Source: Candidatus Iainarchaeum sp.
GTDB lineage: Archaea > Iainarchaeota > Iainarchaeia > Iainarchaeales > DTGL01
DNA: 10,942 bases
Assembly: GCA_038736825.1 (NCBI GenBank)
Contig: JAVYME010000036.1
Span: forward strand, 1-10,942
Reading direction: 5' to 3'
The notes under the pieces are model-generated. The model made no database searches, was not told the DNA's origin, and saw nothing but the letters and a program-made list of their open reading frames with translations. This document shows positions 580 through 10,041 of this stretch, piece by piece. Within the stretch, counting starts at the first letter, position 1; every line of letters begins with the position of its first letter. A program made the position numbers and the translations under genes.

Positions 580-2109
580 ATGAAATCCAAAAAAGCAATA
601 ATTGTTGGAGCGGGCCCAGGCGGTTTGGCTTGCGCAATGATTTTAGCCCACAGGGGTTTTTCAGTGACAGTTTACGAGAAAGAGGCAAGAGTGGGTGGAA
701 GGAATGCAGTGCTAAAAATTGGTCCTTACACTTTTGACACTGGCCCGACATTTTTAATGATGAAATTTATAATGGATGAAATGTTTGAAGAGGCTGGAAA
801 AGACTCTTCAAACTACCTCAAGGTGAAAGAGATAGAGCCATTGTATCACCTTGACTATGGAGACATGGAATTGTTTCCTTCAAAAGACATGGAAAAAAAC
901 ATTTTGGAGGCAAAAAAGTTTTTTCCTGGCAGTGAAAAAGGCGTTAAAGAATTCTATGAAAAGGAAAAAAAGCGCTATGAATTGTTGTTTCCATGCCTTC
1001 AAAAGGATTACTCGCATTTTTCTGCTTTTTTTTCAAAGCGCTTCATAAAGGCAATTCCAATTTTAGGCATAAACGAGTCCTTGTTTGATAATTTAAACCA
1101 TTATTTTAAGGATTTAAGGCAAAAAATGGCTTTTGCGTTTCAATCCAAATACCTTGGAATGTCGCCATGGGAGTGCCCTGCAGGTTTTACCATGATTCCT
1201 TACGTGGAAAGAAGATATGGCATATTCCATGTAATGGGCGGCTTGAACGCAATATCTGAGGCAATGGCGAGAGCAGCAAAAGAGGAGGGCGCAAAAATAA
1301 AACTGAAAACCCCAGTAAAGCAAATAATCTTTGAGGGAAGAAAAGCAGTCGGGGTTTTGCTTGAATCAGGCAAAAAGGATTTTGCAGACGAAATAATAAT
1401 AAACGCAGACTTTGGTTATGCTGCCACAAACCTTTTCCCGAAAGGGTTTTTGAAAAAATATTCTCCAGAAAAAATTGCAAAAAAGAAATACTCTTGCTCC
1501 ACTTTCATGATATACTTGGGAGTGGACAAAAAATATTCCTTGCCACACCACAACATTTACTTTTCAAAAGACTATGAAGGCAACGTGAAAGACATATTTG
1601 AAACAAAAAAACTCTCTGAAGAGCCGTCCTTTTACCTTCAAAACCCTTCAGCAATAGATGAATCGCTTGCACCAAAAAACCATTCTGCAATCTATGTGCT
1701 TGTTCCGGTTCCAAACAACACTTCCAAAATAAACTGGGAAAAAGAAAAGAAGGCTTTCAGGAACAAGGTACTAAATTTAGTGGCAAAAAGAACAAAAATA
1801 AAAGACATAGAAAAGCACATAAAGGCTGAACATATTATCACTCCACTTGACTGGGAGAAAAAATACAATGTTTATTATGGTGCCACATTCAATTTAGCCC
1901 ACAATCTTTCCCAAATGCTTTATTTCCGTCCAAGAAACAAGTTTGAGGAAGCTGAAAACTGTTGGCTTGTCGGAGGCGGCACTCATCCTGGAAGCGGTTT
2001 GCCGACAATATACGAGTCTGCAAGAATCACAGCAAACCTTTTATGCAAAAAGCATGGAATCAACTTCAAAGAACCTTCAAGCCTTTCAGAAAAAAGAACA
2101 GGCGGCTGA
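580..2109 (+). CDS. crtI: CrtI-family phytoene desaturase / carotenoid (FAD-dependent) oxidoreductase
   Basis: ATG 580 gives MKSKKAIIVGAGPGGLACAMILAHRGFSVTVYEKEARVGGRN (Rossmann GxGxxG at nt 604-624, followed by E-x5-GGR). It continues with GPYTFDTGPTFLMM and the C-terminal NCWLVGGGTHPGSGLPTIYESARITANLL. These are the three hallmark blocks of CrtI-type enzymes. The ORF-track TTG at 565 adds 5 residues before a canonical N-terminus, so ATG 580 is preferred. Stop is TGA 2107-2109. Subfamily (CrtI, CrtD or CrtN-like) cannot be decided by eye. Confidence 0.85.
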   Translation: MKSKKAIIVGAGPGGLACAMILAHRGFSVTVYEKEARVGGRNAVLKIGPYTFDTGPTFLMMKFIMDEMFEEAGKDSSNYLKVKEIEPLYHLDYGDMELFPSKDMEKNILEAKKFFPGSEKGVKEFYEKEKKRYELLFPCLQKDYSHFSAFFSKRFIKAIPILGINESLFDNLNHYFKDLRQKMAFAFQSKYLGMSPWECPAGFTMIPYVERRYGIFHVMGGLNAISEAMARAAKEEGAKIKLKTPVKQIIFEGRKAVGVLLESGKKDFADEIIINADFGYAATNLFPKGFLKKYSPEKIAKKKYSCSTFMIYLGVDKKYSLPHHNIYFSKDYEGNVKDIFETKKLSEEPSFYLQNPSAIDESLAPKNHSAIYVLVPVPNNTSKINWEKEKKAFRNKVLNLVAKRTKIKDIEKHIKAEHIITPLDWEKKYNVYYGATFNLAHNLSQMLYFRPRNKFEEAENCWLVGGGTHPGSGLPTIYESARITANLLCKKHGINFKEPSSLSEKRTGG

Positions 2110-2114
2110 ACTTT

Positions 2115-3025
2115 TTGCCAAAAAACACGGTTTTGCTCTTGCAATTAATTAAGCTTGGGCGCTTTCAATTTGTTTTTGGGGGCATCCTGTTATACCTCTT
2201 GGGTTGCCTTTTGGCATTGCCTGCAGGCTATGCTTTCAATCCCTTTTTATGGTTTTCTGGCTATCTAGTTTTGTTTCCAGCGCACCTTTCAGTTTCCTAC
2301 AGCAATGACTTTTTTGATTCAATTGGAGACAAGGCTGCCAAGCGAACCATTTTCTCGGGCGGAAGCGGTGTTCTCTTAGAACACCCTGAACTAAGAGAAA
2401 CAGCGAAAAGAATTGCTTTGGCATTAATAGCATTGTCTTTTCTTGCAGGAATTGCTTTCATTTTAGCATTTGATTTCAATCCATTTCTTTTGGTTTTTGT
2501 TTTAATTGGAAATTTTTGTGGCTGGTTTTATAGTGCCCCCCATTGCGCTTTTCTGAAAAAATTTATGGCAACACTGTTTTTGCCCTTACTGCTTGCGTTT
2601 TGCTTCCAAGCTTTGGCAATTTTATTGCTTCCGGTACAATCACGCCAGAAATGCTTGCATTTTCAATTCCACTGCTGTTTTATGGTTACGCTTTCACAAT
2701 TGCAGTTCAAATACCCGATATTATTGTGGACAGAAAAAACAATAAAAAAAATTTTGCACTGGTTTTAGGCGAACAAAAATCCTTTTTTGCAATTTTAGTT
2801 CTTTCAATTTCAGCCTCTCTTTCCTTTATTGCAATTCCCTTCCTTTTCAAAAACATCCCTGACTTCAATTTTTTCTTTTTATTTTCATGGATTCCGCTTG
2901 CAGTTTCTTCCTTCAATCTTTTGGCAAAAAACAAGGCCTCCCTTAAAACAATGGTTTTTGTTTCTTCAATAATGGCTTTTGCAGCAATTTGCAATGCATT
3001 CCTGTTCTGGAAATTTTTTTGGTAA
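2115..3025 (+). pseudogene. UbiA-family aromatic/isoprenoid prenyltransferase, interrupted by a 1-nt frameshift in a C6 run (true pseudogene, homopolymer assembly error, or recoding site)
   Basis: The N-terminal half is in the frame of ORF 1962-2768. It carries TM helices and the first Asp-rich motif NDFFDSIGD (nt 2304-2330). The C-terminal half is in the frame of ORF 2543-3025, with the second Asp-rich motif DIIVD (2717-2731) followed by RKNNKKNFALVLG. The two frames can only be joined at 2534-2542. Adding one C restores ...WFYSAPPLRFS..., the canonical UbiA-fold junction. The repaired length of about 300 aa is typical for the family. The start is uncertain: there is no in-frame ATG after the crtI stop, and TTG 2115 (5 nt after the stop) or TTG 2133/2139 are the candidates. 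Confidence 0.75.
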
Positions 3026-3057: not shown

Positions 3058-3915
3058 TTATTCTACAATAATCTCTAATTCAAAGGATTGCGCGCTTTTT
3101 GATGCAAAGCCCACGTCAACGTATTGACTGCCGAGTTCTTGCTTCCACTTTTCAGCATATTCAATTGGTGGATCCACAATAATAATTTTGACAGAAAAGT
3201 TCTTTTTTGGAGCATTCTTTTTTGCAAAAACCTCCACAAAAACAGCCCTAGCCCAAGCTTTATCGAATTTTGGAAAGCTTGGGCCTAACAAAAAAACAGG
3301 CTCGCTTATGTTCACTTCAAGGAATTGCTTTGCATTTTCATCAAGAAATTCTGGTTTCAACATCATTCCCTGAAATGATCTTACCCCATAACCTGAATGC
3401 AGAAAAAACACAGTCTTTTTTTTTCCTTCCTGTTGCACAAAAACAGTTTCTTTTATGGGAAAATAGCCATAGCCATAAGCAGCCCAATGCGTTGTAGACG
3501 GCTTTAACCAGTATTCAAGCCCGTTTTGCTTGAAAGAAGGATAGAATTCTGGTTGCAAATAATAATCTTTTGAAAAAAAATCATAATTCGTGTAAAGGTT
3601 TTTGTGCATTAATGAAACAATCCTGTTAAAATCAGGGGGTGGAACAGGCAATTCTTCAAATACTGCTAGCGGAATGCCGTAAGCCTTTCTTTCTTCCATA
3701 AGCCCTTCCGAATTTTGGCTGCTTTCTGGAATTATTGAAGAACTAAAACCAGGAAGCAGGTTGTTGTTGTCGCTTTCAATGCTGGTTTTTTTGAATGAAT
3801 TCAGGTTAAAAACAAAAAAGAAAACAGCCAAAACCGCAACAATAACAATTAAAATCCCAGCAATGGCTTTTTTTTCTGGCTTTTTCTTTTCCATAAAAGC
3901 AAATTTTCCAGCCAA
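3058..3915 (-). CDS. Hypothetical N-terminally membrane-anchored protein with an aromatic-rich extracytoplasmic domain; distal gene of the giant-protein operon
   Basis: TTG 3915 sits 4 nt downstream of GAGGTGA (3920-3926). An alternative ATG lies at 3894. The product has a basic N-terminus (KKKPEKK), one TM helix (AIAGILIVIVAVLAVFFFVF), and then about 235 aa rich in Tyr/Phe/Trp (HWAAYGYGYFP, FFLHSGYGVRSFQGM) with no motif I recognise. Stop is TAA 3058-3060. Confidence 0.75.
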   Translation of the reverse strand: MAGKFAFMEKKKPEKKAIAGILIVIVAVLAVFFFVFNLNSFKKTSIESDNNNLLPGFSSSIIPESSQNSEGLMEERKAYGIPLAVFEELPVPPPDFNRIVSLMHKNLYTNYDFFSKDYYLQPEFYPSFKQNGLEYWLKPSTTHWAAYGYGYFPIKETVFVQQEGKKKTVFFLHSGYGVRSFQGMMLKPEFLDENAKQFLEVNISEPVFLLGPSFPKFDKAWARAVFVEVFAKKNAPKKNFSVKIIIVDPPIEYAEKWKQELGSQYVDVGFASKSAQSFELEIIVE

Positions 3916-3919
3916 AAAA

Positions 3920-3926
3920 TCACCTC
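3920..3926 (-). promoter_or_regulatory. Shine-Dalgarno site GAGGTGA overlapping the stop codon of the giant gene
   Basis: The minus strand reads AGC-TGA-GGTGA-TTTT-TTG. The GA of the TGA stop (3925-3927) plus GGTGA form GAGGTGA, which is complementary to the 16S rRNA 3' end. It is followed by a 4-nt spacer and TTG 3915. This is a classic translational-coupling arrangement. Confidence 0.55.
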
Positions 3927-6900
3927 AGCTTGGACCACTAGTGCTTGTAACATTGCGATCTGTGCTTCCAACACTGGCTCCAATAAAATCTGCAAAAATA
4001 AAAATGTTCAAATCCTTTGAACCAGTGCTATAAACAGCAGTTCCAATGTTTTTTGGAGTAGCATCTATTTCAACACAGTCCACGTCAGTGTTTCCACTGC
4101 ACGAAGAAGCCCAGCCATTGTATGTTTTTGAAACCTTTAACTTGAGAGTGCTTGGAAGGGCTTCATTCAAGTGAAGCGAAAAATTAATATCGTTCCAGCC
4201 AGTGCTTTGATTGTCATAAACAAAAAAAGGAATGCTTGAAGTCTGGCCTTCTGGGTCCACTTTGGTTTGATCTGAAAGCCCTGACAAATCTGTTGGCTCA
4301 AAATAGCCTTTTTCGCAGGCACCACTGCCAGCACTAATTCTGCCTTTTCCTTCAGTGCAACCTGAAGAGGGCAGTGAAAGCGTGAAAGTATAATCCGCTG
4401 GCCCACTTATTGTTATATTTATGTCTGCATTGTTTGCACTAGAATAGTTCACGTCAGCACTCCAATTAGAATCAATTTTTGCTCTAATTGTATAAGTGCC
4501 AGCGGCAGTGCCAGTGACTTGGAAAACAAAATAGTTTGTGTCAGAAACATCGAGCAAATTGTCTCTCCTGAAATAAGTGCCATTTGAAACATAAAGCGGG
4601 CTTGAAGAAGAAGTGTTCATGTCAAACCATTGAGAGCAGCCATTTGAAGGATTAATGCAATACATTAGTACGACATTTGTGTCACCACAGGAATAGTTTT
4701 TGCAAGAGCCAAGCACGCTTACATCAAAAGCAGTGTTTATTGTTTTCTGTGAATTGTTTGCAGGCGAAACAATTCCAGTGTTCAAGTCACCTGCAAGCCT
4801 AATGCTTGCAGGAGCAATGAGGTTGCTGTCCCTTGTTGCTGCAGTATTCCCGTTATAGGAAAGTGTTCCCACAGCAGTGGTTGGGCTCACACCGTAAAAC
4901 GCGACCTCTGCGACTATTTTGTCTCCCCTGGTTAATGTAACAGCACTACCAGCAGCAGTCAAAAGCTTGTATGTGGGGCTTGTACCAATTTCAGTTGCCA
5001 AGGTAGTTGGAACCACAATATTCTGCTGCTTTGAGTCATTTGCATCCCAGACATAAATCGCATACCTTCCCTGCAAGTCGTCGTTAGTTGCACTTTCGTG
5101 AAGATAAGCAGTCATCCTCCAGTTCGCAGCGGAAATAGTCTGCGGCACAAGTGGAGGAGAAGTGAAAGAAGCTAGGCTGATGAAAACATTACTTCCACTA
5201 CTAAGTGATGGTGTTGAAATAGTAGTGGTCGAACTACCAGCTGTGTCAATCATTCCAAGGCCAGTCCAAGTGCTTCCGGCAAGAAAGCTGTCTCCAGAGG
5301 CAGAAGCATTAGGCATTGGCTCACTTGGAGCCCAATCAGCGGCTTGCCTAAAAAAGAAAATTGTTGTCGGGTTTGCGTCCACTGCAATCATCCAAGCCCT
5401 TGTTTCTGCAAAAAAGAAGTTTTTTCCATTTATCTCCAATGGCCCGATATTGTAAAGCCATGGCTTTTTGTCAGGAACTGAATAATAATAGTAAATTTCT
5501 GCAATTCCTTCTTCATTGAATTTAACATTTTTCCATTCAATTATTTTCTCGCTTTCGGTTTCAGAAACAGAAAAGCCTTCGCCTTCAATTTCGAATTCTT
5601 TTGGCACAAACTCTCTAATGTCAGCTGTTTTCTTTCCATCAAATGTTTTCACCTCTATTGCTACTTTGTTGGGTTGAACTGCTGGGTCGATTTTTGTGGC
5701 GGTTCGCCTTAAAACTTCAAAGGGAACAAATTTTTGGACTTCAAAGGTTGTCTTAATTTCAACATCAATATTGGGAGCAATGGCTTTCGCTAGCACTCCA
5801 TGGGTTCCCTCTTCAAAAACTTGCAGTTCGCCAACATAAATTCCACTTGAAGTTGTTTCCTTTATGGTGCCATTTATTGTGGAAATTGTTTGAGTTTGCC
5901 CGCTTGGAGTCAAAACTGCAAGGTTGACTTCTGCCCCCTGCACTCCATAGCTTTCCCTGTCGAGCACGACAACATGGAATTCAACTGTTTCACCCGGCTT
6001 ATATGTGCTTTTGACTGTATTTACTGCAATCAAGCCCCATTCAAAGGAATCCGATTGCTCTATAAACTCATTTCCGTCAAAAGCTTTAATTCTCAAAGTA
6101 TAAGTGCCAGCCTTAAAGCTTCGCAATACTGGCACGGTTATAAGGAAAACCCCTTCCTCTTTTCTTTTTATTTTTTCTGTGCTAATCGGTTTTTCTGTTC
6201 CATCCGGCATTACAAGAAATGCTTCTATTTCACTGTCAACTTTTTCGTTCAATTCGCTTGTTATTTGGAGTTCAAAGACAGGCATTTCGTTTGCCAAAAA
6301 TTTGGAGCGAGCTTTGGAGAGTGCAAAAAACTTTTTTCCAGATTTTTTTATTTTTAGCTCTGGCTCGTCCTTGTTAAAATCCTCTATATTGAAATCTGGT
6401 GGCAGTTCTGGCAAAACAATGCGCTTGGCAAAAGCAAAGGCTCTTGCACCGTTTTCCAAGGAAAGCAATGCAGTGGCGCCACTTATTTCAGAGGCTTTTT
6501 CAAAAAGCGAATTGCATTTTTTTCCAGCAAAATCCCAGTTATTGCATAAAAAAACAGTGTCAGCTTCACCAGGCACTGCGAACGAAATAAGCCCTTGTTC
6601 AAAAGAAAAACCGGGCTTTTCTGCCACAATGTTTTCAAAATAAAAGTTTTTGTCAGGACTGGGCACAGAATTTTCATCTATTTCTTCATCTATTTCAAAC
6701 AATGTTGTGTTTGAGTCAATTTTTGCTCCGTCAATTTCAATTTTTGAAAAAACAGAATCAAAAAAAGAAATTTTCAAGGCATAAGAGCCAAGCGCTATTT
6801 CAATCAATTCAGTGCCAGAGGCAACAGGGTTCTCGTTGGAATCATAAAATGTTGCTGCTGAAAAAAAATTGGATGGCTTTACAAAAACAGTTTTTTGCAT

Positions 6901-7503
6901 TGGTTCAATTGGCTTTGCAGTGCCAGGCGCCAAAGATGGAGTTGGGAAAGGGGTTTCCCCTGAATGGCTTGGGCTTATTGCTGGCGTTTCAAGGAGTGTA
7001 TCCTGTGCTTGAGTTGGAATTGCAGTCTGAATTGGGGTTTCCGGAAGAGTTGTGTCAGGCTGAAGAGGGCTTGCAGTTGGGATTTCCTCGGGCTTTTCTT
7101 CCAAGGGATTGATTATTTCTATATTGGCTTTCTTGGATTGGCAGTTTTCTTCGATGCAGGCAGTAATTGAAAAGGAATGCACTCCATTTTCAAATTGTAA
7201 AGAATTAAAATCTGATGAAAAATTGTTTTCAATTGAAAGACTGCCAAGCCTTTGCCCGTCCACTTCAAACCAAGCGCTTGTAATTTGTTCCCTTGGCTCT
7301 ATAACTGCAATAACTATTGCACTGCCTTTCACTTTTTGTGATTCCATTGGCGAAACTATTGAAACAAATAATGTTTCTTGTTGAGTTTTTGCGGTTTCTT
7401 TTAAGATTTCATCTTCTTGAAAGAACGCGGGGGAAAGAAAAAAAGTTGTTGGAATAATAAAAACCAAGCAAAGCCAGAAAAAAAAGCCACTTTCTTTCAG
7501 CAT
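3925..7503 (-). CDS. Giant (~1190 aa) secreted surface protein: mosaic of Ig-like/beta-sandwich domains with a Pro/Thr linker and a Cys- and N-glycosylation-sequon-rich C-terminal third; no C-terminal membrane anchor
   Basis: The ORF is uninterrupted from 3925 to 7515. ATG 7503 (MLKESGFFFWLCLVFIIPTTFFLSPAFF...) is preferred over the TTGs at 7515/7512. After the hydrophobic N-terminal signal comes an Ig-like domain (VSIVSP...GSAIVIAVIEP...AWFEVDGQRLG...NGVHSFSITA). A Pro/Thr/Glu linker with ETP repeats follows (nt ~6898-7107). Beta-sandwich modules follow, each with the pattern x-P-[DS]-G-x...G-x-Y (e.g. YKPGETVEFHVVVLD...VLTPSGQ...SGIYVGEL, nt ~5746-6033). The C-terminal ~290 aa (3928-4803) contain many Cys and, by my manual count, at least 12 N-x-S/T sequons in the last ~460 aa. 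The protein ends ...DRNVTSTSGPS with no TM segment. Stop is TGA 3925-3927. Confidence 0.85.
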   Translation of the reverse strand: MLKESGFFFWLCLVFIIPTTFFLSPAFFQEDEILKETAKTQQETLFVSIVSPMESQKVKGSAIVIAVIEPREQITSAWFEVDGQRLGSLSIENNFSSDFNSLQFENGVHSFSITACIEENCQSKKANIEIINPLEEKPEEIPTASPLQPDTTLPETPIQTAIPTQAQDTLLETPAISPSHSGETPFPTPSLAPGTAKPIEPMQKTVFVKPSNFFSAATFYDSNENPVASGTELIEIALGSYALKISFFDSVFSKIEIDGAKIDSNTTLFEIDEEIDENSVPSPDKNFYFENIVAEKPGFSFEQGLISFAVPGEADTVFLCNNWDFAGKKCNSLFEKASEISGATALLSLENGARAFAFAKRIVLPELPPDFNIEDFNKDEPELKIKKSGKKFFALSKARSKFLANEMPVFELQITSELNEKVDSEIEAFLVMPDGTEKPISTEKIKRKEEGVFLITVPVLRSFKAGTYTLRIKAFDGNEFIEQSDSFEWGLIAVNTVKSTYKPGETVEFHVVVLDRESYGVQGAEVNLAVLTPSGQTQTISTINGTIKETTSSGIYVGELQVFEEGTHGVLAKAIAPNIDVEIKTTFEVQKFVPFEVLRRTATKIDPAVQPNKVAIEVKTFDGKKTADIREFVPKEFEIEGEGFSVSETESEKIIEWKNVKFNEEGIAEIYYYYSVPDKKPWLYNIGPLEINGKNFFFAETRAWMIAVDANPTTIFFFRQAADWAPSEPMPNASASGDSFLAGSTWTGLGMIDTAGSSTTTISTPSLSSGSNVFISLASFTSPPLVPQTISAANWRMTAYLHESATNDDLQGRYAIYVWDANDSKQQNIVVPTTLATEIGTSPTYKLLTAAGSAVTLTRGDKIVAEVAFYGVSPTTAVGTLSYNGNTAATRDSNLIAPASIRLAGDLNTGIVSPANNSQKTINTAFDVSVLGSCKNYSCGDTNVVLMYCINPSNGCSQWFDMNTSSSSPLYVSNGTYFRRDNLLDVSDTNYFVFQVTGTAAGTYTIRAKIDSNWSADVNYSSANNADINITISGPADYTFTLSLPSSGCTEGKGRISAGSGACEKGYFEPTDLSGLSDQTKVDPEGQTSSIPFFVYDNQSTGWNDINFSLHLNEALPSTLKLKVSKTYNGWASSCSGNTDVDCVEIDATPKNIGTAVYSTGSKDLNIFIFADFIGASVGSTDRNVTSTSGPS

Positions 7504-7528
7504 AAGAACCAACAACCACTGGTTGAAA

Positions 7529-7593: not shown

Positions 7594-7902
7594 ATGGGAA
7601 AAAGGGTGATATACGTGAATTTTAAGTTTTGGGTAATAGTTTTAATTTTAATAAATTTTTGCATAGTGGTGTTTGCTGACACTCAAACCACCACTTTGAG
7701 TTGGGTTATTCCCGCAAACGTTGTGCACACTCTCTCTTATGGTGGCAATTGTTCAAATTCCGCAATGTATTTTATTGAAACAAATTCTCCAGAGGATCCA
7801 GACATTGACGGAAATGGCGCAAAAATAATTCCATATGATGCAGCAAGCAGTGGCATTTCAATAGACAGGCCACATTTTAGGCTAATCATAACAGTAAACT
7901 AA
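7594..7902 (+). CDS. Small secreted protein (95-102 aa precursor) with signal peptide; mature part resembles the start of the giant protein's C-terminal domain
   Basis: ATG 7594 gives MGKRVIYVNFKFWVIVLILINFCIVVFA/DTQ. The alternative GTG 7615 is preceded by GGGTGAT (7604-7610) plus a 4-nt spacer and gives MNFKFWVIVLILINFCIVVFA/DTQ, a textbook Sec signal. The mature ~73 aa are Thr/Ser/Asn/Asp-rich. Stop is TAA 7900-7902. There is no alternative long ORF here on either strand. Confidence 0.6.
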   Translation: MGKRVIYVNFKFWVIVLILINFCIVVFADTQTTTLSWVIPANVVHTLSYGGNCSNSAMYFIETNSPEDPDIDGNGAKIIPYDAASSGISIDRPHFRLIITVN

Positions 7903-7983: not shown

Positions 7984-10041
7984 GTGCTAGCAAAAAAACT
8001 GCCTTTGGTTTTGCTCTTTCTGTTGTTTTTCCATTTACTGGTTTTTGCGGATTTTAAGGGAACAGACTTAAAATGGCTTTCTGCAAGCGAAAACCTTTAT
8101 GAAATAAATATAACCGCAGATCATACGCCTGAATTGAACCAAGTTGTTGAAATAAAAGTGTCATTTTCAAAGCAAGGGGTTTTGCTTTCCGGCGACATAA
8201 ATGGCACAATCACGAAACCGGATGCTTCAACTGAGAGTTTCAATTTTGTACAAACTGGGGACGGCAATCACCAGTATAATTTTTTGTTTGAACAAAATGG
8301 GGCTTACACTCTTGACATAACCGCAGTTGATGAAAATGGCTTTCTTGCAAGGAAAAGAGATTATTTTTATGTTGGAGCATACAATATCAACAGGTCTATA
8401 ATAAGCCAGCAAGATTTTCTTCCAAACTCTATTGTCACCATTATGGTTTATGCAAGCGTTAATCCACCGCTGGTGCGTGCTAGGGGAACAATTTCAATAA
8501 ATTATCCCAATGGAAACGCTCTTGTGTCAAATGCAAATCTCACTGAATCTACAACGCCAGGATATTACTCTTACAGTTTCACAGCGCCAAACATTCTTGG
8601 AACATATACTTACAACATAACAATGGTTTCTGGAGCGAATAGTGTTTCAAAAACAGGCAGTATAAACATCAATGTGTTGGGAGCCATTTGCGGCAATGGT
8701 TTTTGTGAAACAAATGAAACCTGCACAAACTGTGAAAGCGATTGCGGTGCGTGTACAATGCCAACTCCAATACAACAACCTGGCGGGGGCAGTGGAGGCG
8801 GAACAGGCGGTGGAGGTAGTTTTGCAAAACCCACTCCAACGCCAGAAACCTTTGAAAAACCAAAGATTAGAGCAGAAGGCATTTCTGTAAAGCCATTTGA
8901 ACTTGGAAGCCCTGCAATAATTAGCGGCAAAATCATAAATTCTTCAGACAAAAAAGCCACAGTACTAGTTTCAGTCATAATTCAATACGAAAACACACTG
9001 GAATATGTGGATGAAAGGGTTTACCTTGACATATTGCCTTCTTCCTCTCAAGACTTTTCAATGCTTTTGCCTTGGACTCCAAAAATTGCTGGCTCGCATG
9101 TAATGACTTTAACATTGTATTCAATTGACAAAACCGTTAAATTTGACGAACAAGTAAAAGTTTTTGAATTGCCAGGCGAAATGCGTTACGATCTAGAAAT
9201 CAAGTGCATTACTCAAAACACGGCAGCAGGACTGCCAGCCTATTTTGAAATATTTGCCTACAATTTAGGACAATACTATTCCGACATAGGCCTTTACTGG
9301 TTTATAGAGGACAGTGAAGGAAAAGTCCAGTTTTCTTCTTCAACGCCGTTTGCACTCAAGCCTGACGAAAAGGCAACCAAAGCGTTTATTGCCACAATTC
9401 CGCAAAACGCAAAATCAGGAATTTACACTGCAAGGGCAAAACTTTTACACCTTGAAAACGGCAATCAACCGGAAAGAGAAGCGATTTGCACTTTTAATGT
9501 TTTAAGCCAGCCAAACTATTATGCTTTAGAGGTTTTTGACTTAAACAAAAGGCTTGAAGAAGCGCAAAGCGCGGTTGAAGAACTAAAATTAAAAGGAAAA
9601 AATGTTTTAAGCATTGAATTGAAAATCTCTCAAGCAAGGCTGGCTCTTTTTGAAATAGAAACATTGATTGGCAACCGCAATTTTGAAGGAATTGAACTCA
9701 AATTAATAGATTTGTTCAAAAAAATAAACGATATTGAAAAAGAAATAGAACAAATCAAAAAAGAACCAGTTTTTGATTTCACAATTGTTTTGTTTTTGAT
9801 TTATGGCTTGATACTTTTGCTTTTAGGGTTCTTTTTTTATAGGCATATGCGACTGGCTGCTGAAAGAGAGGAAAAGTTTTCAAAAATTTTGGAAGCAAAC
9901 ATTCGCTCTGCAAGAAAGGCAAAAAGCCTTATTCCAATCGGCAAATCCTTATGGCATGAACCACAACACAAGCGGTTAATGCGAAAAATTCACGAAACCA
10001 GTCATGCCCATAAGCACGCTTTAAGCCATCATAAAAGTTAA
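7984..10041 (+). CDS. Type-I membrane surface protein: signal peptide, Ig-like domains, Cys-rich module, Gly/Pro linker, two CARDB-like domains, coiled-coil stalk, C-terminal TM helix, His-rich cytoplasmic tail
   Basis: GTG 7984 gives MLAKKLPLVLLFLLFFHLLVFA/DFKG, a signal peptide. Two beta-sandwich modules follow, with the P-[DN]-G...G-x-Y pattern (TKPDAST...NGAYTLDITAVD; NYPNGNA...PGYYSYSFTAPNILGTYTYNITM). Next come CGNGFCETNETCTNCESDCGAC (8689-8754), the linker PTPIQQPGGGSGGGTGGGGSFAKPTPTPE (8755-8865), and two CARDB-like repeats (~8872-9168 and ~9181-9504). A heptad-rich segment, LNKRLEEAQSAVEELKLKGK...KKINDIEKEIEQIKKE, spans ~9520-9765. The TM helix FDFTIVLFLIYGLILLLLGFFFY spans 9772-9840, followed by a basic tail ending HETSHAHKHALSHHKS. 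Stop is TAA 10039-10041. Confidence 0.85.
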   Translation: MLAKKLPLVLLFLLFFHLLVFADFKGTDLKWLSASENLYEINITADHTPELNQVVEIKVSFSKQGVLLSGDINGTITKPDASTESFNFVQTGDGNHQYNFLFEQNGAYTLDITAVDENGFLARKRDYFYVGAYNINRSIISQQDFLPNSIVTIMVYASVNPPLVRARGTISINYPNGNALVSNANLTESTTPGYYSYSFTAPNILGTYTYNITMVSGANSVSKTGSININVLGAICGNGFCETNETCTNCESDCGACTMPTPIQQPGGGSGGGTGGGGSFAKPTPTPETFEKPKIRAEGISVKPFELGSPAIISGKIINSSDKKATVLVSVIIQYENTLEYVDERVYLDILPSSSQDFSMLLPWTPKIAGSHVMTLTLYSIDKTVKFDEQVKVFELPGEMRYDLEIKCITQNTAAGLPAYFEIFAYNLGQYYSDIGLYWFIEDSEGKVQFSSSTPFALKPDEKATKAFIATIPQNAKSGIYTARAKLLHLENGNQPEREAICTFNVLSQPNYYALEVFDLNKRLEEAQSAVEELKLKGKNVLSIELKISQARLALFEIETLIGNRNFEGIELKLIDLFKKINDIEKEIEQIKKEPVFDFTIVLFLIYGLILLLLGFFFYRHMRLAAEREEKFSKILEANIRSARKAKSLIPIGKSLWHEPQHKRLMRKIHETSHAHKHALSHHKS

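Follow-up and report, generated by a model that had tools for sequence, protein, structure and literature searches.

A mosaic surface protein of Candidatus Iainarchaeum that may be retained through its C-terminal domain and a membrane-tethered operon partner

The contig JAVYME010000036.1 of Candidatus Iainarchaeum sp. (assembly GCA_038736825.1), analysed here over its full 10,942 nucleotides (nt) and hereafter called the window, carries on its minus strand a gene for a large protein with a secretion-type N-terminus. This gene is followed directly by a smaller one, BD1, encoding a membrane-tethered protein, and on its other side lie, on the plus strand, the remnant of a gene named famC and a further gene, famE (Table 1). 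An original prediction, made from the letters of the DNA, had described the large product as a giant mosaic surface protein with a single hydrophobic segment, extracellular, disulfide-stabilised and N-glycosylated, which, having no anchor of its own, must be retained through a partner or released. The protein, with a C-terminal third dense in Cys and in glycosylation sequons, had been put forward as a strong candidate for the outermost surface or for host contact.

Table 1. Features of the surface-protein locus in the window (positions in nt of the window; residues in amino acids, aa)
Feature	Residues	Position	Strand	Remarks
Large surface-protein gene	1-1192	3925-7503	minus	NCBI 'MAG hypothetical protein QXK06_05350'; 1192 aa; stop codon 3925-3927
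Sec signal peptide	1-30	7414-7503	minus	Predicted from hydropathy and family N-termini; cleavage probably near the SPA/FFQEDE junction
N-terminal Ig-like module, Nig	45-135	7099-7371	minus	Cys116/Cys121; family-conserved; weak Pfam Big_7 match (E 0.003); module hidden Markov models (HMMs)
Pro/Thr/Glu-rich linker	136-203	6895-7098	minus	Three ETP units; orthologues differ in its length
D2	204-365	6409-6894	minus	Cys320/Cys330; second family-conserved N-terminal module; no Pfam match
MGa-MG2-Ig3 triple beta-sandwich	400-710	5374-6306	minus	Contains the Pfam MG2 match
711-905 module	711-905	4789-5373	minus	Beta-sandwich/jelly-roll; conserved RGDK turn (R859-G860-D861); AlphaFold and Foldseek
Cys-Ig (CARDB-like) module	906-1035	4399-4788	minus	Pairs 934/939 and 949/956; most sequon-dense; Foldseek match 3idu
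C-terminal domain, CTD	1036-1192	3928-4398	minus	Pairs 1049/1063 and 1135/1143; YDNQS[TS]; ~155-aa beta-sandwich; always terminal
BD1, downstream operon partner	1-285	3058-3915	minus	285 aa; N-terminal membrane anchor, spacer, conserved ~210-aa extracellular domain
famC-BD2 fusion open reading frame	1-102	7594-7902	plus	102 aa, in frame; first ~76 codons from famC, last 26 codons from the second BD
famE	1-685	7984-10041	plus	685 aa; signal peptide, Ig-like domains, Cys cluster, Gly-rich linker, coiled-coil stalk, transmembrane helix at ~aa 594-621, basic cytoplasmic tail

The large gene and its modules

The minus-strand open reading frame (ORF) runs without interruption from 3925 to 7515 when counted from a TTG codon; the start chosen at NCBI, the ATG at 7503, gives the 1192-aa product, whose source is a metagenome-assembled genome (MAG) labelled Candidatus Diapherotrites archaeon and whose contig is the window itself. 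Three orthologues, found at the homologous loci L001, L002 and L004, are collinear with it over their full length, share 50-56% identity with it and have the same architecture, so that the single ~3.6-kb ORF of the original prediction is a real conserved gene and no chance reading frame. By the same collinearity, a chimeric misassembly with a breakpoint inside 3925-7503 was ruled out. The G+C content rises to 0.41-0.44 at 4001-5500, against ~0.33-0.40 elsewhere in the window; this region corresponds to the C-terminal half of the protein, which is rich in Gly, Ala, Ser and Thr, and amino-acid composition probably explains the rise.

A word-index homology search returned only two relatives of the full protein and eight of its CTD, and an exhaustive profile search was therefore needed. 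With residues 204-1192 as query, it recovered 2008 proteins sharing modules at E<=1e-3 and 1565 at E<=1e-10, most of the latter, among the matches listed, being reached through the MGa-MG2-Ig3 block. Running module HMMs over the best 150 of the 2008 relatives gave the domain parse of Table 1, in which the protein is made, after its signal peptide, of beta-sandwich modules alone. Pfam MG2 (PF01835) matches residues 498-569 with E 9e-10 and 39.2 bits, above its gathering cut-off of 32.8, Big_1 and Big_7 match weakly, and the Nig HMM matches most family members. The MGa-MG2-Ig3 block recurs in large and mostly unannotated proteins, which number well over a thousand and reach 5267 aa and one of which is named CARDB domain-containing protein of an archaeon; within the family of the window protein it is one exchangeable insert. 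Residues ~711-905 had no match in Pfam or among PDB sequences. A profile of residues 696-1035 likewise retrieved nothing meaningful from PDB sequences. An AlphaFold model of residues 696-1035 is all-beta (predicted local distance difference test, pLDDT, 81), and Foldseek related it, with E values between 1e-6 and 1e-4, only to tandem beta-sandwiches of a generic type, among them transglutaminase barrels, C3/A2M MG domains, MAM-Ig, the CocE jelly-roll and a CARDB domain (3idu). Neither Pfam nor NCBIfam detected a catalytic domain or family, NCBIfam returning no match at all. Much of this had been anticipated in the original prediction: its ~70-aa Pro/Thr/Glu linker with three ETP units, its modules resembling alpha-2-macroglobulin MG or bacterial Ig folds and its stretch at ~730-900 resembling nothing recognisable all reappear in the parse, and the catalytic domain that it had named as a possible objection did not come to light.

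The 711-905 module holds an RGD tripeptide (within LTRGDKIV, aa 859-861, window 4921-4929, minus strand); its R859 and D861 do not vary among the orthologues, nor does the Asp in 18 family sequences. Though it lies on a surface protein, this tripeptide is probably a structural turn.

In Kyte-Doolittle profiles (19-residue segments) only residues 4-30 exceed 1.6, the maximum beyond residue 40 being 1.23, in agreement with the single hydrophobic stretch first noticed. Because the N-termini of the family show an n-region, an h-region of 15-20 residues and then, in most members, a small-x-A or 'A-Q-E/D' cleavage-type motif, this segment is most likely a cleaved Sec signal peptide, which would leave the mature chain anchor-less. 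The large protein has neither a C-terminal anchor of its own nor a lipobox, and an archaeosortase/PGF-CTERM-type tripartite C-terminal signal is absent, no hydrophobic stretch occurring after residue 40; the C-terminus (...DRNVTSTSGPS) falls inside a beta-strand of the AlphaFold model.

The mature protein contains 12 Cys, arranged as six local pairs (Table 1) that are all invariant across the three aligned orthologues, and the four Cys of the CTD are also invariant in an alignment of 30 diverse family representatives. Since these local pairs are invariant, disulfide stabilisation of the protein is likely. The paired Cys described for the last ~290 aa and the extracellular, disulfide-stabilised character ascribed to the protein are upheld, whereas the density of sequons in the same region held in part: 10 of the 15 N-x-S/T sequons do lie within the last 290 aa, but their enrichment over composition is modest and goes beyond expectation only in residues 906-1035 (7 against 3.8+/-1.6 expected; 3 against 2.2+/-1.2 in the CTD). 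The only universally conserved sequon, N1098 in the YDNQST motif of the CTD (43/43 sequences), could be structural in role.

The C-terminal domain and its tethered neighbour

In all 40 representatives the CTD lies at the extreme C-terminus, 0-7 residues from the stop codon. Most full-length CTD proteins, which are ~1030-2775 aa long, share one frame, consisting of signal peptide, Nig and D2 at the start and the CTD at the end, and enclose wholly different middles, some of them with weak FG-GAP-like repeat matches. Because the start and the end are constant and the middles differ, the mosaicism can be located in the middle, and the family is, to judge from its sequences, a lineage-specific mosaic. 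The window protein and its locus show every element that defines the family: a signal peptide, Nig, D2, a terminal CTD with the four invariant Cys and the YDNQS[TS] motif, which is likewise invariant in the alignment of 30 diverse CTDs, and a BD gene directly downstream.

Synonymous divergence (dS) was saturated among the orthologues of the large protein, which made dN/dS unusable, and we relied on non-synonymous divergence (dN) and identity instead. Of all modules, the CTD and the Cys-Ig module show the smallest dN values: 0.21-0.23 relative to the two nearer orthologues and 0.29-0.30 relative to L002, the most distant one. For Nig, D2 and the 711-905 module the range is 0.42-0.68. Conservation is poorest in the first 30 residues of the protein (20-35% identity). 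The mosaic nature that had been proposed is thus confirmed, but the shuffling sits in the middle and the C-terminal end is constant; the idea of the Cys- and sequon-rich C-terminal third as a variable, outermost part in contact with a host is not supported, this being the most conserved region. As its ~155 aa are found family-wide and are obligately C-terminal, a role in docking or assembly suits the CTD better than one in host contact.

AlphaFold models the CTD as a nine-strand beta-sandwich (pLDDT 92.1). For residues 1036-1192 we found no match in Pfam, in NCBIfam or among PDB sequences; Foldseek returned nothing significant from PDB structures (best E 0.08, template modelling (TM) score 0.40) and no significant match among the viral structures of BFVD, and a scan of viral contigs gave no relatives. 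The non-significant PDB list is made up mostly of donor-strand pilins and tip adhesins (CS17, CsuA/B, Caf1, Fim subunits, the CupB6 tip adhesin, Ena2A and the P. calidifontis bundling pilus), and we treat it as a lead only. In a scan of one genome per species the CTD was present in 32 loci, with one or two copies per genome, nearly all labelled Candidatus Iainarchaeum, ainarchaeum or uncultured archaeon. Two contigs bear other labels, Thaumarchaeota (L016) and Chloroflexi (L034); both have complete Iainarchaeota-type genes and are most likely mis-binned.

BD1 starts 9 nt past the stop codon of the large gene, and the same arrangement recurs throughout the family: of the 35 CTD genes with enough downstream sequence, 29 are directly followed on their own strand by a BD gene, at a median gap of ~9 nt, and in one more locus BD lies directly upstream. 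The BD proteins downstream of CTD genes have ~260-300 aa and are always membrane-tethered: a transmembrane anchor, or a lipobox-like L-x-[GC]-C motif that takes its place in three orthologues, precedes a variable spacer and a conserved ~210-aa domain. Since these three have exchanged one device for the other, tethering itself is suggested to be the conserved feature of BD. The lipobox-like N-termini read LLSGC, FASGC and FTCGC (L020:6117-6902, L024:4938-5729, L034:1169-1969). None of 30 BD proteins has a Pfam match, the BD profile matches no PDB sequence, and every homologue of BD is a hypothetical protein from Diapherotrites or ainarchaeum. A role as a sortase-like enzyme was considered for BD and rejected, the family having no invariant Cys, His or Ser. 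The retention through a partner that had been deduced from the missing anchor has acquired in BD a concrete candidate, encoded in the same operon, and the gene of a SlaB-like protein, famE, lies nearby.

The five-gene cassette and the other genes of the window

The large gene and BD1 belong to a recurrent five-gene cassette composed of the large CTD gene, BD, famC, a second BD and famE; at many loci famC, the second BD, which is a longer paralogue, and famE stand together in one operon. famC is a ~212-aa secreted protein with six Cys, whose mature N-terminus carries a conserved, beta-strand-like TTxTWxxP motif, and it is a stand-alone homologue of the CTD. This homology was obtained with hhalign (global P 1.2e-6, local P 2.3e-5) and with a second comparison tool (E 4.2e-5, probability 70%), all controls (15 column-shuffled, one reversed and six other-module profiles) giving P>=0.036; a search of PDB sequences with the famC profile yielded no matches. 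Because famC is homologous to the CTD and is followed by a BD paralogue of its own, the rule that a protein ending in a CTD-type domain precedes a BD gene holds twice per cassette. The famC-type domain is also found, split or C-terminal, in longer proteins of 414-890 aa at six loci (L016:2-2671, L019:3515-4792, L023:1354-2598, L025:1010-2335, L026:3890-5146 and L033:16162-18573), with a BD gene following in L019, L023, L025 and L026. Thus, famC-type domains, too, serve as terminal modules.

In the window, famC and the second BD are reduced to the fusion ORF of Table 1. Its famC part shares 70% nt identity with positions 6613-6730 of L004, and its last part, the final 66 nt of the second BD, 91% with positions 5114-5179. 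Relative to L004, ~1.43 kb has been lost at a junction that coincides with a PY[ND]AAS[GS]G microhomology common to both genes, and the loss could be either a real deletion or an assembly collapse. Cassette genes split by apparent frameshifts were seen in other MAGs, namely BD1 in L002:4096-4873 and the large CTD gene in L014:9293-10478 and L025:3188-7761, and these reflect either assembly errors or frequent decay of the locus.

famE measures 620-715 aa across loci and ends in a basic tail, and its architecture (signal peptide, Ig-like domains, coiled coil and C-terminal transmembrane helix) recurred in 10 of the 10 members examined. It neighbours the large gene in about 15 loci, but shares its operon with famC and BD2, and many large-gene/BD pairs (L022, L026, L028, L029 and L031) have no famE within 10 kb. 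Searching PDB sequences with the famE profile returned nothing meaningful. Near the C-terminus of several members there is an LLGL-type motif (KLLGLK, RLLGLA, GLLGLDD and ELLGLKEE; L003:6153-8111, L006:11691-13550, L017:13403-15355 and L034:3983-5977), not obvious in the famE of the window; the motif may be a binding site for a cytoplasmic partner.

Two further genes of the window lie on its plus strand. A flavoprotein of the phytoene-desaturase/amine-oxidase family (565-2109) stands directly upstream of a UbiA-family prenyltransferase (1962-3025), the latter being split into two overlapping frames, of which the ORF at 1962-2768 covers positions 6-134 of the Pfam profile and that at 2543-3025 positions 114-249. 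The split is an apparent frameshift, which would make the gene a pseudogene or point to a sequencing error. The pair recalls gene pairs for the modification of carotenoids or isoprenoid lipids and is unrelated to the surface cassette. Scans of the window for tRNA genes, Rfam families and tandem repeats gave nothing relevant. At L003, a groundwater contig of 527 kb, a 295-aa protein is encoded ~4 kb from the cassette (L003:17888-18775, plus strand); it starts MQMKKKIQEIFREGQSALEYVF..., followed by a hydrophobic stretch, and this N-terminus resembles the class III (type IV pilin-like) signal peptides of archaea.

Possible modes of retention at the cell surface

We propose, with a probability of about one half, that the large protein is a Sec-secreted, disulfide-braced surface protein held non-covalently through the docking of its CTD to the tethered BD, within a larger cassette. 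It would be exported by Sec and lose its signal peptide, leaving a mature chain without an anchor, and the CTD would then act as docking module for the ectodomain of the membrane-tethered BD1. In this arrangement, the conserved C-terminus would lie near the cell and the variable parts would face outward. The docking might take place inside a larger assembly comprising famC, the second BD and the SlaB-like famE.

Several observations weigh against this proposal. First, three or four loci (L011, L014, L021) have no BD beside the CTD gene. Second, a Mantel (mirror-tree) test gave no co-variation of CTD and BD beyond their shared phylogeny (partial r 0.20), and the co-variation of BD with the N-terminal Ig module was no weaker than that with the CTD. 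BD could be a chaperone or assembly factor instead of an anchor, and the large protein could dock through its conserved N-terminal modules. Finally, as famC and the second BD are deleted in the window, the cassette may be partly non-functional there.

A wider and distinctly more tentative suggestion is that CTD/famC and BD constitute an undescribed, Iainarchaeota-specific display or assembly system, in which a terminal sorting domain would be read by a tethered partner and homotypic contacts between CTD and famC could build a stalk or fibre on a SlaB-like base. Such a system would be an archaeal, single-membrane counterpart of chaperone-subunit logic or of the CTD logic of the type IX secretion system (T9SS) of Bacteroidota. 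T9SS cargo proteins likewise carry an obligately C-terminal beta-sandwich on otherwise unrelated modular surface proteins, and in both cases it is plausibly read by dedicated machinery that attaches the protein to the surface. However, there is no homology, TIGR04183 and Por_Secre_tail being unmatched in residues 1036-1192 (NCBIfam/Pfam), and the organism is an archaeon without an outer membrane. In addition, the CTD described here is about twice as large, has two disulfide-type Cys pairs, is paired with a single small tethered protein and is not known to be cleaved.

Among the alternatives, a two-component S-layer like that of SlaA and SlaB in Sulfolobales survives best, though we consider it unlikely: the large protein would form the canopy and famE the membrane stalk, with BD and famC as accessory proteins. 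As in that system, a large, anchor-less, glycosylatable outer protein built of many beta-sandwiches, here also Cys-bridged and sequon-bearing, would depend on a partner for retention, and in about 15 loci a neighbouring gene encodes a protein with beta-sandwiches, a coiled-coil stalk and a C-terminal transmembrane helix. The constancy of the stalk-like famE architecture and this proximity to the large gene agree with this scheme, and one or two CTD genes per genome would suit a core envelope component. On the other hand, neither the large protein nor the famE profile has a sequence relationship to SlaA or SlaB detectable among PDB sequences, a library that presumably contains the solved structures of both. 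The stalk gene here is in a separate, often divergent operon, shared with famC and BD2 and not with the large gene, and is missing near many large-gene/BD pairs. The tightest partner of the large protein is a different one, the N-terminally tethered BD. Moreover, the mosaic middle and the length of the large protein, which vary ~2.7-fold between species, would be unusual for a lattice subunit. A broad survey, finally, assigns MSTP-like S-layer proteins to other DPANN phyla (10.1101/2024.05.28.596244).

Somewhat less probable still is a donor-strand fibre with the large protein as tip adhesin, in which the CTD would be a pilin-type domain, famC the polymerising or adaptor subunit, the BD proteins tethered chaperones, and famE the base. 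As in the two-domain tip adhesins of chaperone-usher pili (FimH, CupB6) and in archaeal donor-strand filaments (Saci_0406 threads, the AbpA/TasA superfamily, cannulae), the chain passes from a variable part, which would be adhesive, to a terminal beta-sandwich with a homologue in a small secreted subunit encoded nearby; here this subunit is famC, whose mature N-terminus is strand-like, and each CTD-type subunit has a dedicated accessory gene, one BD. Archaeal donor-strand filaments without known chaperones exist (PMC9715654; PMC12518558), and such pilins dominate the weak structural neighbours of the CTD. Yet every one of these matches falls below significance, the CTD is modelled confidently as a complete monomer, and neither a Pfam TasA/Peptidase_M73 signal nor any PDB sequence match was obtained for famC or the CTD. 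Furthermore, famC is deleted in the window while the large gene is intact.

It is improbable that the N-terminal segment is instead an uncleaved signal anchor that would tether the large protein by itself in type II topology. The h-region is ~21 residues long in the window protein, the residues before QEDE form no textbook A-x-A, and in some orthologues a long Pro/Gln-rich spacer directly follows the hydrophobic segment, all of which would suit an anchor; against it stand the typical, cleavable-looking N-termini of most family members and the poor conservation of the first 30 residues. Least probable is the release of the large protein in soluble form, as a protease trap of the alpha-2-macroglobulin type or as another secreted effector, for although it has a genuine MG2 flanked by MG-like and Ig-like modules, as in A2M/MG and CARDB/Big-type multi-Ig surface proteins, and gives weak PDB sequence matches to the MG domains of A2M and TEP1, it has a single MG2 and no Cys beyond the six pairs, lacks the thioester (CGEQ), bait region, CUB, TED and receptor-binding domain (the missing thioester and bait region, from Pfam and the Cys inventory, led us to reject a protease inhibitor of this kind), and sits in a tight operon with a tethered partner that argues for surface retention.

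Archaea of the DPANN group are ultrasmall, most of them have not been cultured, and their biology is considered to hinge on the cell surface. In the papers that we searched on the surface proteins of Diapherotrites/Iainarchaeota no envelope or attachment component is described, and neither the broad S-layer survey nor the studies of archaeal threads, of cannulae and of the TasA superfamily describe the present family. Secreted multi-Ig surface proteins that a partner retains are of a kind known in archaea; what is undescribed are the CTD/famC, BD and famE families and the strict way in which they are paired. The locus thus brings together three uncharacterised, lineage-wide families in a recurrent cassette and provides a clear, testable hypothesis for the retention of a large anchor-less surface protein, within a frame whose exposed middle is exchanged between species. 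If true, sorting or docking of the CTD by BD would be a new archaeal route of protein display, and the CTD-BD pairing would serve as a useful marker when DPANN metagenomes are searched for surface proteins.

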